The notes: generated by a model from the letters alone, not told the origin. Positions 25,990 through 30,225 are shown, counted from the stretch's first letter. The stretch: DNA of 32,000 bases from Candidatus Poseidoniaceae archaeon (GCA_943789275.1 CALSTM010000003.1:510001-542000), one strand, 5' to 3'. A program made the numbers and translations.

Positions 25990-27204
25990 TTAAATATCGA
26001 CGACTTGCTTTTCTGCGGGTAGTGCATCAGCGTTCTTTCGAGCGTAGACCAGTCCCCATATTCGCTCCCAAGGTACAAAGAATCGTAACAGTGCCATGAT
26101 GCTCAAGAACATGGCAGCGGAGATTACCAATCCATAGGTAAGCGACAATTCAATCGATTCAGAGATTTGTCCAGCCCATTGACTTCCCGTTGAATCTTCG
26201 ACAAAACCGAGCAGAACCGTGTGGAAGCCAAGTGCCACCATTGTTGCGATACCCGTGAGCCCAAGGAATCCAAAGGTGTGTTTGAGGTGTGTGTTGAGGA
26301 CGTTATCCATTTGTCGGACGTATTCTGGGTCACGCTTGCACGATTCAGGAAGTCTGTAGGCATACTCGAGATAGCGGATGACACCGTAGGATGATTCTTG
26401 GAACACCATGATGAGGACTGCAATCATAATCAACGCAAACTGTTGTTTGGTGACCAACATCAATCCGAAAATGCCGATGGTCGGTTCGCTGAATTGAGCA
26501 CCGATGACGTTGACTGAATCGCCGTACGAGCCCAGTTGACCGTTGATGAGTGGGAAAGCAAGAATGGCGTGTATTCCAAGAAACAGCAATGTGAATCCAA
26601 TGGCCCAAGCGATGGAGCGACGAGACAATCCCCAAATGCCGCGCACACCCATGATAACGGGTAAGAGGTAAAGGAACAGAATCATCAGTGAGAGAATCAT
26701 GAGCAGTGGCCATTCAAGGGTGCTTAATTCGTTCGAGTTTGGCAAGCGTAGGTCGAATGAGAACAGCATTCCGGTTAGCCATGACAACAACAACTGTCCG
26801 ACCAAGACAACGATGAGCGTGACGATGAATCCAAGTTTGACCCGTTGTTGAACTTTCGGCGTTTGGAAGGCAAGTAATGCCATACCGCCACCCACGACTA
26901 TTCCGAGGATCAAGGGTACGAAGAATCGAGCCAGGCCGCTTCTTCCTTCACCGGTCAACCAGTCTCCGATTGGCAGTTGGTCTCCAATCAGTATTTCGAT
27001 GGTGTCAAACAGCATGGTGTGGTCGATGGAGCCAACGACGTAATTTGAGACAACTTCCAGATACATGCCGACAAGTGCCATTGTGGCAATGACCTGCAAG
27101 GAGATGATTTGCCACTGCTTTCGAAGGAGTTTGAGGTGCAGTGTCCTTGGACTTCTTTCACCCGTGACGGTGACGTCTCGTTGCAATCCCACATCATCAG
27201 CCAT
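25990..27204 (-). CDS. Polytopic membrane protein (about 9 TM), last gene of the DUF4350-like/DUF58 operon
   Basis: 404-aa ORF. ATG 27204 lies 1 nt after the DUF58 stop and follows GTGAGGGGG. It has multiple long hydrophobic helices and one charged loop, YRLPESCKRDPEYVRQMDNVLNTHLKH. No family recognised. Confidence 0.8.
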   Translation of the reverse strand: MADDVGLQRDVTVTGERSPRTLHLKLLRKQWQIISLQVIATMALVGMYLEVVSNYVVGSIDHTMLFDTIEILIGDQLPIGDWLTGEGRSGLARFFVPLILGIVVGGGMALLAFQTPKVQQRVKLGFIVTLIVVLVGQLLLSWLTGMLFSFDLRLPNSNELSTLEWPLLMILSLMILFLYLLPVIMGVRGIWGLSRRSIAWAIGFTLLFLGIHAILAFPLINGQLGSYGDSVNVIGAQFSEPTIGIFGLMLVTKQQFALIMIAVLIMVFQESSYGVIRYLEYAYRLPESCKRDPEYVRQMDNVLNTHLKHTFGFLGLTGIATMVALGFHTVLLGFVEDSTGSQWAGQISESIELSLTYGLVISAAMFLSIMALLRFFVPWERIWGLVYARKNADALPAEKQVVDI

Positions 27205-27205
27205 C

Positions 27206-28459
27206 TCAATACCCCCTCACTTGCATGAGTGCTTGTGACAAGTCCATGTCTGGCATCCAATCGATGACCATTGCTCCAGAACCGGCCAGTGTGGTTAGGC
27301 GGTTCTGTCGTTCGAGTTTGAGAACTTCATAGGACATACGAGGTATTCGGCTCACTAATCGCTCAAAGTCAATGCTTGAAGGCGAGAGTACGGTTACTTC
27401 GTGGCCGCGTCCAACGAGATCTCGGACTGCAGCAGGAACTGTTCCGTCACCCTCACATGAGGAGATGATGAAGACCGGACTGCCTCGGCTGAACCTACCG
27501 CTCAATGAGTTGGTAACGGCTTGTAACGGCATGGTCCCCTTCGGAGATACGCCGGCAAGGGCGCTGAGGATTTTGAAATACTGCTTGTCACCGGTATCCG
27601 GTGGGAGATAGGAGAGGTTGTCGTCGAAGATGGCAAGAGCAACAGAATCTCTTCTCTTGAGGAAAAAGGCCGCAAGACTTGCAGCAGACACGGTTCCCAT
27701 CTCGAGGGGATTTTTCAGCACTGTACCGATTCGAGCGATGTCTCTACTGTCCAAAAGAATGTACAAGTCGGTAACAGCATCTCGGCACTTTTCGTTGACC
27801 ATCAAGTCACCTGTACGGGCAAACGCCTTCCAATTGATGTTCTTGAACGGGTCACCCGGTACATATTCTCGCAGTGAGTAGAATTCTGAACCTTGCCCAG
27901 GTGTTCGCAGTGTTGTGGCTCCAGTGTACATCTTTGGTGTGCGGGAGCGAAGGAATGCTTCTTCCACTTCCTTGATTTGTGGGAAGATGACGATGTCGCT
28001 GTGGTGGTCGACGTACATTTCGTCGACGCCCAAGTTGAAGGTGTTGCGTGAACGCAGTGATACCGGCCCAATCGAGAAATGACCTCGCAGCGGGCATCGA
28101 AGGACGTAGCGTATTCGAGCGCTTTCTCCGGGTTTAAGGTTGAGTCTCATTTGGTTAAGCCCGCTTCTCAATTTCATTTCATGCGGAATGTTGTCGTAGA
28201 CTTCCAAGAGTTGAGTGTTGCGGTTTGAGCGGTTCGTGACCAGCAGCTCAACGTACAAATCATCGCCTTTGTAGAGATTATCTGCAGAAAGTGTTCGTTG
28301 AACTTCGACATCTCCGTGACCCGAAATCCACGAGTTGACAACAATGAAAGCGATGAACGTCAGTCCAAGAATCATCATCTGGAGATTTGCAATCATCATT
28401 CCGATGAGAATAAGTGCAATACCGCCGGTGAATGTGAAAGATGCCTTACGTGTCCACAT
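27206..28459 (-). CDS. DUF58 family protein (vWA-like fold, usual partner of MoxR AAA+ ATPases) with N-terminal double-TM hairpin
   Basis: The signature block RTPGQGSEFYSLREYVPGDPFKNINWKAFARTGDLMVNE is followed by LYILLDSRD. An upstream beta-sandwich-like region (LYVELLVTNRS...LKPGESARIRYVLRCPLRGHFSIGPVSL) is typical of DUF58. ATG 28459 is preceded by GAGGTGA. Confidence 0.8.
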   Translation of the reverse strand: MWTRKASFTFTGGIALILIGMMIANLQMMILGLTFIAFIVVNSWISGHGDVEVQRTLSADNLYKGDDLYVELLVTNRSNRNTQLLEVYDNIPHEMKLRSGLNQMRLNLKPGESARIRYVLRCPLRGHFSIGPVSLRSRNTFNLGVDEMYVDHHSDIVIFPQIKEVEEAFLRSRTPKMYTGATTLRTPGQGSEFYSLREYVPGDPFKNINWKAFARTGDLMVNEKCRDAVTDLYILLDSRDIARIGTVLKNPLEMGTVSAASLAAFFLKRRDSVALAIFDDNLSYLPPDTGDKQYFKILSALAGVSPKGTMPLQAVTNSLSGRFSRGSPVFIISSCEGDGTVPAAVRDLVGRGHEVTVLSPSSIDFERLVSRIPRMSYEVLKLERQNRLTTLAGSGAMVIDWMPDMDLSQALMQVRGY

Positions 28460-28468
28460 AATATCACC

Positions 28469-30103
28469 TCAGGTTCTTCCCCACGCCTTGATTCGTTTAA
28501 CAACAGCAACCGTCTGTTCAAGAGAGTATTTACTCGGTTCAATTGCGAATTTTGCTAAGACCGGGTCGTTGATGAGTGAAACCAAATCTCGGGCCGGCAT
28601 AGCGTGGAACTCTTCCCGTGACAGACCGTTTTGGTTTCTTACCTTGGAGAGGAATACTTGTCGAATCTTGTCGGTCTTGGCATAGTATGTGTAACGGTTG
28701 GCATCGCCAAATCCGTAGTAAATGATGCTGAAGACGTGTCGCCATGGTTCTGGGTCTCGCTTCTTGATGAGGACAGCCTCGAATGCGATGAACAGACCGA
28801 GGAACAGCAGGAGCATAGCAAGTCCTTCACCGGTGAAATAGACCAACAAGAAGTAAACGGTGTTGTAGGAGTCTGCCAACAAACCGTTTTGCGGATGTCT
28901 TGATTCATCGAAAATAACCATGGCGTTCTCAGAAGGTTGCCCCTCCTCGCCAATTTTACTGGACATCAACGCTTCAGCAATGAAATCCAGCGCCCATTTT
29001 CTGTTGTCGTTTTCAGGAATGCACTTGGTATTGTTGGTCACGCAGTCGTTTGTTCCGTACAATGGGTTGTTGGGGTCATTGAACCCTTCATAGTCGTAAA
29101 TAGCATTGATCAGCGCAGAACCATCAGCCACGAAGACGATTCGACCGCCTTCATCGGGGTCGCATGATTTTCGAGCACATGCTTCGATGCTGAGGTTGAA
29201 TTGTCCCCAAAGGTCAGGGGTTTCTGAGTTGACTTCGTTACCGACCCAGATTTCACCGTCACCGTTGACATCAACCGTTGCTTCGTTACTGGTGACTGCA
29301 CGGATGGACACTTCTGACAATGCCCCGTTAACGCCAGGAATGAGTTCCAAAGCAGTGATGTTGTTGAGCAACATTTGGTAGGTTGCGTTGTATTCAATCT
29401 CACCGCTGTTCCAATGGTGAGCGCACAAACCAGCATCTTCCAGCGGCATGGATTGACCGTTCATGAGGCTGCACGGATGTGCTCCTTCTCCGCTGGCACC
29501 GCTCCATCGTTCATGGACTGAAATTGTCGTCGGGTCGATGCTGCTGCCGTTCATGCCACAAGGTGTTGCTTGTACACACATCCAGATGTAGTTGTAATCC
29601 AATTCCTGAACATAGGTTGTGTCGAAGAGCTGGTATCCCGTGTATCGGACTCCATAGGCCTGTGCAATACTTCCTGCAAATCCATAGTCGTCAAGAACCA
29701 GTGCTGTACCACCTGCGTCGACGAACTCAACGATAGCATCAATTTCAGACGGTGAATACCCGTCTTCGGAAGCGATGGTAATGAATCCGTCACTGTCGAA
29801 CTGCGGCAGAGAAAGCGTATCACGTTCAACACCTGCTAAGATGTAGGTGGTGTTTCGCGGGTCTTCAATGTCCGCAAGAAGAAGTGGACTGCTCACCAAT
29901 GAGTTGGTTTGAATGCCCATGTCCTTGATGTCTTGGCGAAACGCAGACATATCGTTCCAGTCGTCATCGTAAGCGGACAATTGGTTGGTGTTGGAAATAT
30001 TAACGAAATTAATCAAAATACTCAGCAATAAAATCAGCATGACCGACCAAAATGCGGCTTGTAGCCCAATTCTGCGATAGTTCAGATTTAATTCCTCAAG
30101 CAT
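28469..30103 (-). CDS. DUF4350-like (GldG-like) bitopic envelope protein: N-terminal TM, Cys-rich ectodomain, C-terminal TM + ~100-aa cytoplasmic tail
   Basis: SEIDAIVEFVDAGGTALVLDDYGFAGSIAQAYGV matches the DUF4350 core pattern (E..al..fV..GGtL.v..d). TM helices lie at the N-terminus (AAFWSVMLILLLSILINFV) and near the C-terminus (GLAMLLLFLGLFIAFEAVLI). There are eight Cys between the TMs. The track start is 30148; ATG 30103 is preceded by GAGGTGG (30107-30113). Confidence 0.6.
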   Translation of the reverse strand: MLEELNLNYRRIGLQAAFWSVMLILLLSILINFVNISNTNQLSAYDDDWNDMSAFRQDIKDMGIQTNSLVSSPLLLADIEDPRNTTYILAGVERDTLSLPQFDSDGFITIASEDGYSPSEIDAIVEFVDAGGTALVLDDYGFAGSIAQAYGVRYTGYQLFDTTYVQELDYNYIWMCVQATPCGMNGSSIDPTTISVHERWSGASGEGAHPCSLMNGQSMPLEDAGLCAHHWNSGEIEYNATYQMLLNNITALELIPGVNGALSEVSIRAVTSNEATVDVNGDGEIWVGNEVNSETPDLWGQFNLSIEACARKSCDPDEGGRIVFVADGSALINAIYDYEGFNDPNNPLYGTNDCVTNNTKCIPENDNRKWALDFIAEALMSSKIGEEGQPSENAMVIFDESRHPQNGLLADSYNTVYFLLVYFTGEGLAMLLLFLGLFIAFEAVLIKKRDPEPWRHVFSIIYYGFGDANRYTYYAKTDKIRQVFLSKVRNQNGLSREEFHAMPARDLVSLINDPVLAKFAIEPSKYSLEQTVAVVKRIKAWGRT

Positions 30104-30225
30104 TGGGCCACCTCTAGAGCACTGTTCCGACATTCCCACGTGTTCCATTGGGTTTAGAAGGTTGTTATCATGTGGGTATCAAATGCTCATTGTAATACAG
30201 CTCTTGTGATGCCTCTAAAGCAGTA

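Follow-up and report, generated by a model that had tools for sequence, protein, structure and literature searches.

The DUF58 gene is usually encoded beside that of a MoxR ATPase, and an operon that carries the former without the latter raises the question of which motor, if any, drives it. Such an operon lies in the window, by which we mean the whole 32,000-nucleotide stretch analysed here, from a genome of Ca. Poseidoniaceae, MGIIa (Marine Group II), that is 92.8% complete. Three genes encoding a DUF4350-like protein, a DUF58 protein and a polytopic membrane protein (B_DUF4350, B_DUF58 and B_TM) follow those for Cdc48 and a PRC-barrel protein (Table 1). The first-pass annotation had proposed either that the ATPase partner is encoded elsewhere or that the module works without MoxR or with a different ATPase, the Cdc48-type protein being the only AAA+ gene nearby.

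Table 1. Positions of the operon and its neighbours, counted from the first nucleotide of the window.
Feature	Position	Strand	Description
B_DUF4350	28469..30103	-	bitopic membrane protein, 544 aa; ORF reaches ATG 30148 (28469-30148)
B_DUF58	27206..28459	-	TM hairpin and DUF58 (vWA-like) core
B_TM	25990..27204	-	404-aa, 8-TM protein
Promoter-like box ACAACCTTCTAAAC	30152..30165	-	within the 122-nt PRC-DUF4350 spacer
PRC-barrel gene	30226..30465	-	79 aa from ATG 30465; Pfam PRC 38.7 bits
cdc48	30534..32000	-	C-terminal 488 codons inside the window; full length 741 aa
Convergent 2-TM gene, 80 aa	25747..25989	+	adjoins the 3' end of the operon

The three coupled reading frames were described correctly in that annotation, with agreeing coordinates and junctions of 9 nt and 1 nt. 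A strong GAGGTG-type ribosome-binding site had been assigned to each gene, which holds for B_DUF58 (5 nt ahead of the ATG) and, at the same distance, for B_DUF4350 when read from ATG 30103, whereas B_TM is preceded by GAGGGGG. The upstream ATG 30148 lacks a Shine-Dalgarno sequence, is unconserved in relatives and falls just past a conserved TATA-like box; given these features and the GAGGTG before ATG 30103, the latter is almost certainly the start of the gene.

Both domain assignments hold in profile searches, although to different degrees. B_DUF58 matches Pfam DUF58 (PF01882) at residues 196-355 with 67.5 bits against a cut-off of 23.4 (69.2 bits in a six-frame search of the genome), and its orthologues, which share 63-100% identity across the order, carry precomputed PF01882 matches. 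Hydropathy and charge indicate an N-terminal TM hairpin at about residues 6-41; the remaining body, of about 375 aa, is balanced in charge and presumably cytoplasmic. A sequence search of the PDB found no relative. For B_DUF4350 the match to DUF4350 (PF14258) is marginal, at 30.7 bits over 68 residues where the cut-off is 30.4, and rises to 32.6 bits in the six-frame search once neighbouring stretches are added; 119 of the 120 homologues among the matches listed carry a precomputed PF14258 annotation, and NCBI names some of them "DUF4350 domain-containing protein".

The architecture of B_DUF4350 conforms to the DUF4350/arCOG01314 plan of an N-terminal anchor, a large extracellular domain and a single C-terminal TM. 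In the numbering of the 559-aa frame, hydropathy and charge place the helices at 31-49 and 443-461, enclosing an acidic ectodomain at 50-442 (15 K+R vs 60 D+E) and leaving some 98 aa as a basic tail in the cytoplasm; conservation is highest in TM2 and this tail. The ectodomain, of about 390 aa, comprises a putative GldG/IFT52-like (GIFT, flavodoxin-like) core and an insert containing Cys. The AF2 model of B_DUF4350 reaches a pLDDT of only 62, and the best Foldseek matches in the PDB, though weak, point the expected way: N-terminal (GIFT) domains of IFT52 (prob 0.98-0.99, E 4.5e-3 to 2e-2, TM 0.41-0.46), followed by STM3548 and GH42 trimerisation domains. The eight ectodomain cysteines noted earlier are present, but only four of them (C226, C242, C324 and C329, same numbering) are invariant across the order.

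B_TM had been described as a protein of about nine TM helices and no recognisable family. Hydropathy and the AF2 model (pLDDT 74.7, pTM 0.69) give eight helices instead, with both termini inside. The second part of the description is true of Pfam, NCBIfam and PADLOC, none of which gave a match, and of PDB folds compared with the model; profile-profile comparison, however, identifies B_TM as a homologue of the protein encoded last in the canonical operons, namely that of the paralogous operon described below and those of both MGIII operon types (prob 89-97%). Only 83 matches were found among 1.84 billion cluster representatives, and where the source names an organism it is a member of the Poseidoniales or another marine archaeon. 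Its conserved motifs map to a cytoplasmic loop (270-306) and to the segment 340-363. B_TM is the fast-evolving fourth core component of the module.

The reported absence of MoxR is a property of the locus. None is encoded in the window, and none turned up within about 7 kb at any of some 95 related loci, comprising 80 named Poseidoniaceae loci, 10 loci from three families and five Thalassarchaeaceae metagenome contigs with independent gene calls. The genome as a whole presents a different picture: it holds exactly two each of DUF4350, DUF58, polytopic, DUF4129-tailed giant surface and MoxR proteins, a third AAA_3 match (28.7 bits, inside a 749-aa frame) not being counted. Copy A, on another contig (C2), is a full operon in the order DUF4350-MoxR-DUF58-TM with MoxR in cis, and its proteins are paralogues of those of copy B (DUF4350, 24% identity, E 1e-27; DUF58, 40% identity, E 2e-120). 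Both genes for giant proteins sit away from the A and B operons. The other MoxR gene, at C3:413802-414845, lies at a distance of 123 kb from the window, flanked by aIF5B and a ParA-like gene, and is the only MoxR in the genome without a DUF58 neighbour. It scores 218.6 bits for AAA_3 (PF07726) and 67.6 bits for AAA_lid_2, and when aligned to the in-operon MoxR (62% identity) shows intact Walker A and Walker B motifs and conserved GLAKT and LLADEINR. Profile searches for VWA, VWA_2 and VWA_CoxE found no such protein in the genome, leaving the two DUF58 proteins as its sole vWA-type proteins. The module did not match anti-phage MoxR-vWA conflict systems: no PADLOC defence-system model matched the three operon proteins or the orphan MoxR, and the bpMoxR scores of the MoxR proteins are far below their AAA_3 scores.

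This split is a general feature of the Poseidoniales: each of the 11 genera sampled, from three families, has the two types of MoxR and the two types of DUF58, apparent absences being assembly gaps, and every reasonably complete genome has an unpaired MoxR. The A-type MoxR and DUF58 are always adjacent, while the orphan is always found in the context NDK-aIF5B-MoxR-ParA and never beside B_DUF58; its order-wide identity of 76-100% compares with 80-93% for the in-operon MoxR. Relatives retain the canonical state. In the sister order MGIII, MoxR stands between DUF4350 and DUF58 in both copies in four of five genomes examined, the fifth having a single copy that is also canonical, and most of the 16 loci examined in other Thermoplasmatota carry the full operon giant-DUF4350-MoxR-DUF58-TM. 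The usual placement of DUF58 beside MoxR is thus absent at the B locus and present in the C2 paralogue and in all MGIII and outgroup copies examined.

Trees of MoxR and DUF58 resolve parallel clades, with the orphan (O) MoxR, A_MoxR, B_DUF58 and A_DUF58 each fully supported. The clade stems are long and similar (1.02 and 0.87 for MoxR, 0.84 and 0.70 for DUF58), and the divergence of A from B/O, measured against the MGIII pair, is similar in MoxR and DUF58 too, which fits a single duplication of the whole operon. AU tests neither rejected nor proved the A+O and A+B clades (p 0.23 and 0.39), so that the deep branching of A, B/O and MGIII is compatible both with relocation of MoxR and with its loss alongside a separate duplicate, and the duplication is undated.

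Since the genome encodes MoxR and DUF58 twice each and has no further vWA protein, and since the orphan MoxR is conserved across the order, the partner of module B is most likely encoded elsewhere, as the first of the earlier alternatives had it. On grounds of copy number, descent and elimination, we think it probable that this partner is the orphan MoxR. The B operon would then most likely be a scattered copy of a known predicted archaeal envelope system rather than a MoxR-independent machine. Makarova, Galperin and Koonin (2015; PMC5898192) predicted a complex for secretion or membrane remodelling made up of arCOG01314 (DUF4350), a MoxR ATPase (arCOG00434/00435) and a vWA protein (arCOG02742/02747), and we count this independent prediction as support for the MoxR pairing. 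Their arrangement, with all three in one operon, is not seen at B, but the genome has every component, in matching numbers of copies.

We suggest the following scenario. The three genes represent copy B of a duplicated envelope module widespread in Thermoplasmatota, whose ancestral form is probably one five-gene operon for a giant surface protein with a cytoplasmic DUF4129 tail, a DUF4350/GldG-like ectodomain protein, MoxR, DUF58 and a polytopic protein; in the Poseidoniales it is scattered, with the giants elsewhere, the putative B MoxR about 123 kb off and the A MoxR still in cis. The orphan MoxR would form a cytoplasmic hexamer and dock on the vWA-like body of B_DUF58, the expected docking partner for a MoxR ATPase, held at the membrane by its TM hairpin. 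ATP could then be spent on assembling or remodelling a complex that B_DUF4350 and the 8-TM protein would form in the membrane, in which B_DUF4350 could be grasped by its conserved TM2 and cytoplasmic tail. The complex may in turn act on one of the two giant surface proteins by maturing, exporting or anchoring it. A search for a promoter motif common to the orphan MoxR and the B operon found none, and the orphan may have taken on a new role, given that it has a conserved neighbourhood of its own, made up of the ParA-like gene and, in some genomes, of RHH and an 84-aa gene.

That neighbourhood is also the basis of a different, unlikely, explanation, in which both DUF58 modules rely on the MoxR of copy A and the orphan works with the ParA-like ATPase, for example in segregation or positioning. 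The MoxR-ParA adjacency is order-wide, with RHH and the 84-aa gene next in several genomes, and at the identity shared by the two DUF58 proteins cross-recognition is conceivable. However, MoxR ATPases typically use a vWA partner, for which this genome offers only the DUF58 pair; about 800 nt separate MoxR and ParA in one genus (g7), so coupling is not tight; the ParA-like gene was not found in the five MGIII genomes and so offers no ancestral MoxR-ParA system; and the 2:2 ratio of MoxR to modules is also that of MGIII. That module B needs no ATPase, acting passively as a structural or receptor complex or else as a regulatory variant of module A, would accord with the lack of an ATPase in cis and with a compact, translationally coupled and strongly conserved operon, but we regard it as very improbable given a DUF58 core as conserved as that of copy A, the MoxR beside DUF58 in all other copies examined in the phylum, and the unpaired MoxR throughout the order.

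Several systems already described resemble module B. In the MoxR (MRP subfamily)-vWA pairs RavA-ViaA, CoxD-CoxE, NorQ-NorD and the Bacteroides Bat operon, an AAA+ MoxR and a vWA-type adaptor mature or insert a target complex, the targets being metalloenzymes or envelope-stress functions. Module B would follow the same logic, but has no evident enzyme target, a membrane-anchored DUF58 and an unlinked ATPase gene. The closest likeness is to the arCOG01314 system, which in Thermoplasmatota takes the form of an operon for the giant DUF4129 protein, DUF4350, MoxR, DUF58 and a polytopic protein, and of which an intact paralogous copy is present in the same genome: B shares the N-terminal anchor, a putatively GldG/flavodoxin-like ectodomain and the C-terminal TM, the DUF58/vWA-like protein and, by profile homology, the terminal polytopic protein. 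Unlike these operons, it has neither MoxR nor the giant DUF4129 protein in cis, its putative MoxR lying in the conserved aIF5B/ParA context; it is situated behind Cdc48-PRC; its DUF4350 ectodomain has the Cys-containing insert; and its polytopic protein is longer (8 TM, 404 aa vs about 280-370 aa). The PFNA cluster of Bifidobacterium (pkb2 - fn3 - aaa-atp[MoxR] - duf58 - tgm; PMC8430577) resembles it in gene content, encoding a MoxR-DUF58 pair with a large Ig/FN3-type surface protein and a polytopic membrane protein, but is bacterial, includes a Ser/Thr kinase and a transglutaminase-like membrane protein, lacks DUF4350 and has MoxR in cis.

There remains Cdc48, which, perhaps with the PRC-barrel protein as adaptor, might have taken over from MoxR the role of AAA+ motor in module B, the displaced MoxR being repurposed with the ParA-like ATPase. 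Synteny of the operon with cdc48 and PRC is conserved, as the annotation had asked: Cdc48-PRC-DUF4350-DUF58-TM lie on one strand in every Poseidoniales locus examined, with no obvious terminator after PRC. The synteny extends equally to flanking housekeeping genes, however, which renders this conservation unspecific, and the link is confined to the Poseidoniales; Cdc48 orthologues elsewhere have other neighbours, and neither in MGIII nor in another Thermoplasmatota genome is Cdc48 followed by PRC. Of the five Thalassarchaeaceae contigs, four leave 9-10 nt between cdc48 and PRC and one leaves 38 nt, compared with about 90 nt between PRC and DUF4350. The spacer before DUF4350 contains the TATA-like box ACAACCTTCTAAAC, 48 nt upstream of ATG 30103 and followed by a conserved 5'-leader (GTCGGAA..GCTC). 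The box is invariant in 29 distinct Poseidoniaceae spacers, is matched in the same register by CACAACGGTCTTAAG in Thalassarchaeaceae, where the rest of the spacer varies, and occurs exactly once in the genome; it may be a promoter separating Cdc48-PRC from the operon. The PRC-barrel gene is probably in one unit with cdc48 and not demonstrably part of the envelope module, of which cdc48 itself is a neighbour rather than a demonstrated partner. These observations, the lack of linkage outside the order and the promoter-like element between the units, weaken the MoxR-less or Cdc48 framing of the first-pass annotation, and with a dedicated MoxR paralogue kept under strong constraint we consider a swap of motors a long shot, whether or not MoxR was repurposed; if true, it would be the first link between the Cdc48 unfoldase and a vWA/DUF58 envelope module, none having been found in the literature searched. 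Failed profiles, a MoxR gene just beyond the window or lost synteny had been named beforehand as grounds for abandoning the original description; instead, both profiles hold, no MoxR lies beyond the window and the synteny is kept.

At the other end of the operon, the zero gap at 25989/25990 is real, the TAA of B_TM (25990-25992) adjoining the TGA (25987-25989) of the convergent gene. The Roadblock operon on which the module was said to abut is, however, not a conserved neighbour, being missing downstream in six of nine non-Poseidoniaceae loci examined and in all five Thalassarchaeaceae metagenome contigs. The convergent gene itself recurs with the same size, topology and position in families without the Roadblock operon, a conservation that is positional, with weak similarity (17-42% identity).

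The operon behind cdc48 and the PRC-barrel gene, here module B, lies in a 2.1 Mb genome of three contigs (G000; 92.8% complete), and its homologues carry the labels Candidatus Poseidoniaceae or Poseidoniales, which correspond to Marine Group IIa. The first-pass annotation of three minus-strand genes with 9-nt and 1-nt junctions is confirmed on the ORF coordinates, as is its remark that the operon's stop abuts the stop codon of a convergent 80-aa gene; immediately upstream are the genes for the PRC-barrel protein and Cdc48. The DUF58 and DUF4350 assignments hold in profile searches, the first clearly (67.5 bits, cut-off 23.4) and the second marginally (30.7 bits, cut-off 30.4), and the third protein (B_TM) gave no family match in these searches. 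The start proposed for the first gene, ATG 30148, has no Shine-Dalgarno (SD) sequence and is not conserved among relatives; the protein almost certainly starts at ATG 30103 (544 aa), judging from a GAGGTG 5 nt upstream.

Coordinates of the features discussed; plain positions are those of the window (G000:C3:510001-542000), others carry genome or locus and contig
Feature	Position	Strand	Remarks
B_DUF4350 ORF	28469-30148	-	9 nt to B_DUF58 ORF
B_DUF58 ORF	27206-28459	-	GAGGTG SD ahead of start; 1 nt to B_TM ORF
B_TM ORF	25990-27204	-	GAGGGGG SD ahead of start
Leader of module B	30104-30165	-	box to SD
Convergent 2-TM gene, 80 aa	25747-25989	+	abuts 3' end of 8-TM gene (B_TM)
Thalassarchaeaceae counterparts of convergent 2-TM gene	L156:7191-7436, L158:5681-5932, L159:5729-5965, L160:5691-5966, L161:5727-5954
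Module A operon	contig C2		DUF4350 (549 aa), MoxR (388 aa), DUF58 (440 aa), 308-aa polytopic protein; canonical order
Orphan MoxR, 347 aa	G000:C3:413802-414845		flanked by aIF5B and ParA/MinD-like ATPase gene
Giant surface protein, 3003 aa	G000:C2:131577-140588	-	single TM near C-terminus, DUF4129 tail
Giant surface protein, 2714 aa	G000:C3:18015-26159	-	single TM near C-terminus, DUF4129 tail

Whole-genome profile scans of G000 counted the parts in pairs: two strong AAA_3/MoxR genes (221 and 219 bits), two DUF58 genes, two DUF4350 genes, and two stretches that pass the DUF4129 cut-off, in both cases at the C-terminal, cytoplasmic end of a giant surface protein. The VWA, VWA_2 and VWA_CoxE profiles, which did match in control genomes, found nothing in this one. 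One MoxR belongs to a paralogous operon, module A; the other, the orphan MoxR, is separated from the module B operon by 123 kb. Paralogous pairs align at 62% for MoxR, 40% for DUF58 (E 2e-120) and 24% for DUF4350 (E 1e-27), and the two polytopic proteins match weakly in BLAST (E 4e-4) and with a probability of 94.6% in profile-profile alignment. Xanthine-dehydrogenase-family Mo-enzyme genes always stand directly upstream of module A (L008, G000:C2:390000-408000; also L035-L042 and L045), and the gene for a very acidic 321-aa surface-anchored protein lies between them, an arrangement seen order-wide; a CoxD/CoxE-like maturation link between module A and the Mo-enzymes is conceivable.

A survey of 40 relatives, followed by one of 120 genomes from the class, found the two DUF58 types and the two MoxR types in all three families and at least 11 genera of the order. 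The coordinates of the fetched loci show three fixed arrangements: Aldedh(+)/Cdc48-PRC-B_DUF4350-B_DUF58-B_TM, which never includes MoxR; NDK-aIF5B-orphan MoxR-ParA; and XDH_Mo-XDH_FAD-321-aa surface protein-A_DUF4350-A_MoxR-A_DUF58-A_TM. No MoxR occurs within ±7 kb of the first arrangement in 80 of 80 named Poseidoniaceae loci, which as close relatives (at least 92% identity) count synteny and not diversity. The same arrangement appears in five metagenome contigs of Thalassarchaeaceae, for which gene calls were independent and Pfam assignments precomputed.

A more compact form is evident in MGIII, the sister order, where four of the five genomes examined hold two copies and the fifth holds one, each a compact operon of a giant (~2000 aa, with Ig-like and CarboxypepD_reg domains and a DUF4129 tail), DUF4350, MoxR, DUF58 and a 7-TM protein. 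Other Thermoplasmatota families contributed 16 loci, and this five-gene order recurs in most of them; the two unlinked giants have DUF4129 tails that align closely with those of the in-operon giants from MGIII and other Thermoplasmatota. This makes a five-gene operon the canonical form, which in the Poseidoniales has been scattered. Most MGIII genomes (L010-L018), at only 1.0-1.4 Mb, keep two operons with a ~2000-aa surface protein in each, or roughly 1% of the genome, an outlay implying that the module is important to these streamlined cells.

In IQ-TREE calculations with outgroups, order-spanning clades were evident for the orphan MoxR (support 100/99), A_MoxR (100/100), B_DUF58 (100/100) and A_DUF58 (100/100), with stems that are long and alike (1.02 and 0.87 for MoxR, 0.84 and 0.70 for DUF58), and the two MGIII clades hold identical sets of loci in the MoxR and DUF58 trees. 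A smaller ingroup-only tree joined A with B/orphan at 93-98% SH-aLRT, pointing to a duplication specific to the Poseidoniales. This grouping is lost once outgroups are added, and it is not rejected in AU tests (p 0.23 and 0.39); as the branching order of A, B/orphan and MGIII is thus unsettled, the duplication cannot be dated. In every branching scenario the orphan MoxR is placed as a descendant of the operon-MoxR radiation, and it is the one MoxR lineage without an existing A_DUF58 pairing.

The number of MoxR genes, the lack of any vWA protein besides the DUF58s and the parallel clades together indicate that the MoxR gene of copy B has been displaced rather than lost, and we suggest that module B probably has the orphan MoxR as its ATPase, from a gene at another site in the genome. 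The first-pass description was right in that no MoxR gene sits beside the operon, and its reading is partly supported: of the options it gave, a partner encoded elsewhere is the likely one, and the system as a whole is probably not MoxR-independent. MoxR-vWA pairs follow a general chaperone logic. A secretion or membrane-remodelling complex has been predicted for this type of system (PMC5898192), and the giant is always the first gene of the canonical operon. On these grounds, a hexamer of the orphan MoxR would use the vWA-like body of the membrane-tethered B_DUF58 as its docking site. B_DUF4350 and the 8-TM protein would form a complex, assembled or remodelled by this hexamer, that could in turn mature, export or anchor one or other of the giants with DUF4129 tails; we place less confidence in these biochemical steps than in the pairing of the orphan MoxR with module B. 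The PFNA cluster of Bifidobacterium (FN3 surface protein-MoxR-DUF58-membrane TGM; PMC8430577) is a bacterial analogue of the module.

An alternative scenario, in which A_MoxR serves both modules and the orphan MoxR works with its neighbor ParA, appears unlikely; the ParA-like gene was not found in MGIII. It is highly improbable that module B works without an ATPase. Least probable of all is that Cdc48/PRC has taken over from MoxR, since the synteny of cdc48/PRC with the B operon, kept order-wide, is equalled by that of unrelated flanking genes, and against it other genes, neither PRC nor DUF4350, follow the Cdc48 orthologue in MGIII and another Thermoplasmatota genome, while in the five Thalassarchaeaceae contigs the gap from cdc48 to PRC is 9-10 nt in four and 38 nt in the other, and a spacer of ~90 nt with a conserved promoter-like block separates PRC from DUF4350.

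In Poseidoniaceae this block reads ACAACCTTCTAAAC and in Thalassarchaeaceae CACAACGGTCTTAAG; it is the spacer's only conserved block and stands ~48 nt ahead of the start codon, with a conserved leader after it. We read it as a BRE/TATA-like promoter. Given the other Cdc48 neighbors outside the order, the coupling of PRC to cdc48 and the conserved block, cdc48-PRC and the B operon are likely two neighboring transcription units. The B box occurs nowhere else in the genome, and a promoter motif common to the B operon, the orphan MoxR, the A operon and the giants was not found, only SD-like words. The leader, GTCGGAAC/T..GCTC, is nearly invariant in Poseidoniaceae while the spacer upstream varies, and may be a regulatory 5'-UTR element. 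At the other end of the operon, the 8-TM gene meets the convergent 2-TM gene (75-91 aa), which either abuts its 3' end or overlaps it by 4 nt and is conserved in length, topology and position with weak sequence similarity (17-42%). This 2-TM gene occurs in Poseidoniaceae and also in Thalassarchaeaceae where the Roadblock operon is missing, and may therefore belong with the B locus and not with that operon.

Hydropathy and charge bias back the topology described for the first two proteins: B_DUF4350 has an N-terminal anchor, a ~390-aa acidic ectodomain, a second TM and a ~98-aa basic tail, and B_DUF58 an N-terminal TM hairpin followed by a charge-balanced body, which we read as cytoplasmic because extracellular domains are strongly acidic in this organism. 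The third protein, described with ~9 TM, has eight TM helices instead (N-in/C-in), and of the eight ectodomain cysteines reported for B_DUF4350, all present, only four are invariant order-wide. TM2 and the tail of B_DUF4350 are better conserved than its ectodomain, which suggests that the tail is a cytoplasmic handle; as a DUF4129-like domain it was rejected (no Pfam match even at E 10; hhalign probability 0.1%). Its AF2 model, of modest quality (pLDDT 62), best matched in the PDB the N-terminal (GIFT) domains of IFT52 (prob 0.98-0.99) and next GH42 trimerisation domains, in apparent agreement with the GldG/flavodoxin-like fold assigned by Makarova et al. (PMC5898192). Searches for PDB sequence relatives of B_DUF58 and B_DUF4350 found none. 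By sequence, the B_TM family is confined to the Poseidoniales (83 matches among 1.84 billion representatives); its model (pLDDT 74.7) matched no PDB fold (best E 0.28, TM <=0.18), and its invariant residues group in the cytoplasmic loop 270-306 and around 340-363. A defense-system reading was dropped, PADLOC giving no matches.

Marine Group II archaea, still uncultured, rank with the most abundant archaea of the plankton, and attachment to particles or algae is a role for which their giant surface proteins are prime candidates. Our comparison indicates that the five-gene module of the Thermoplasmatota survives in the Poseidoniales as two complete, scattered sets. What is new is this order-specific scattered form; the archaeal envelope module itself was already known, and no new kind of system is involved. 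For annotation, the Cdc48-adjacent operon should not be called MoxR-independent, and the aIF5B-linked MoxR should be sought. Two paralogous MoxR/DUF58 pairs per cell, one linked and one unlinked, provide a natural specificity experiment. The comparison also yields a defined parts list for testing the role of MoxR-DUF58-DUF4350 systems.

Some irregularities in the survey concern assembly. The apparent absence of the orphan MoxR from two genomes of genus g5 was an artefact, a contig breaking 138 nt before the ParA-like gene (G029); across this genus it is found in 9 of 22 genomes and missing from 13, and a contig end is usually no more than 1-4 kb away, which suggests that the adjoining region is hard to assemble or variable. 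The incomplete genomes G017 and G018 seemed to have lost B_DUF58 together with the orphan MoxR; this is uninformative, Cdc48 and ParA being missing too and the whole region unassembled. In one Thalassarchaeaceae genome (G031:C5:4272-4937) the orphan-type MoxR matches over residues 124-345 only, inside a 449-aa open frame, which could reflect an N-terminal insertion, a fusion or an assembly problem. Finally, a Cdc48-PRC-DUF4350-DUF58-TM locus of 94% identity (L146, CALDQY010000297.1) lies inside a MAG labelled 'uncultured Rhodobiaceae bacterium', and the contig is evidently mis-binned.
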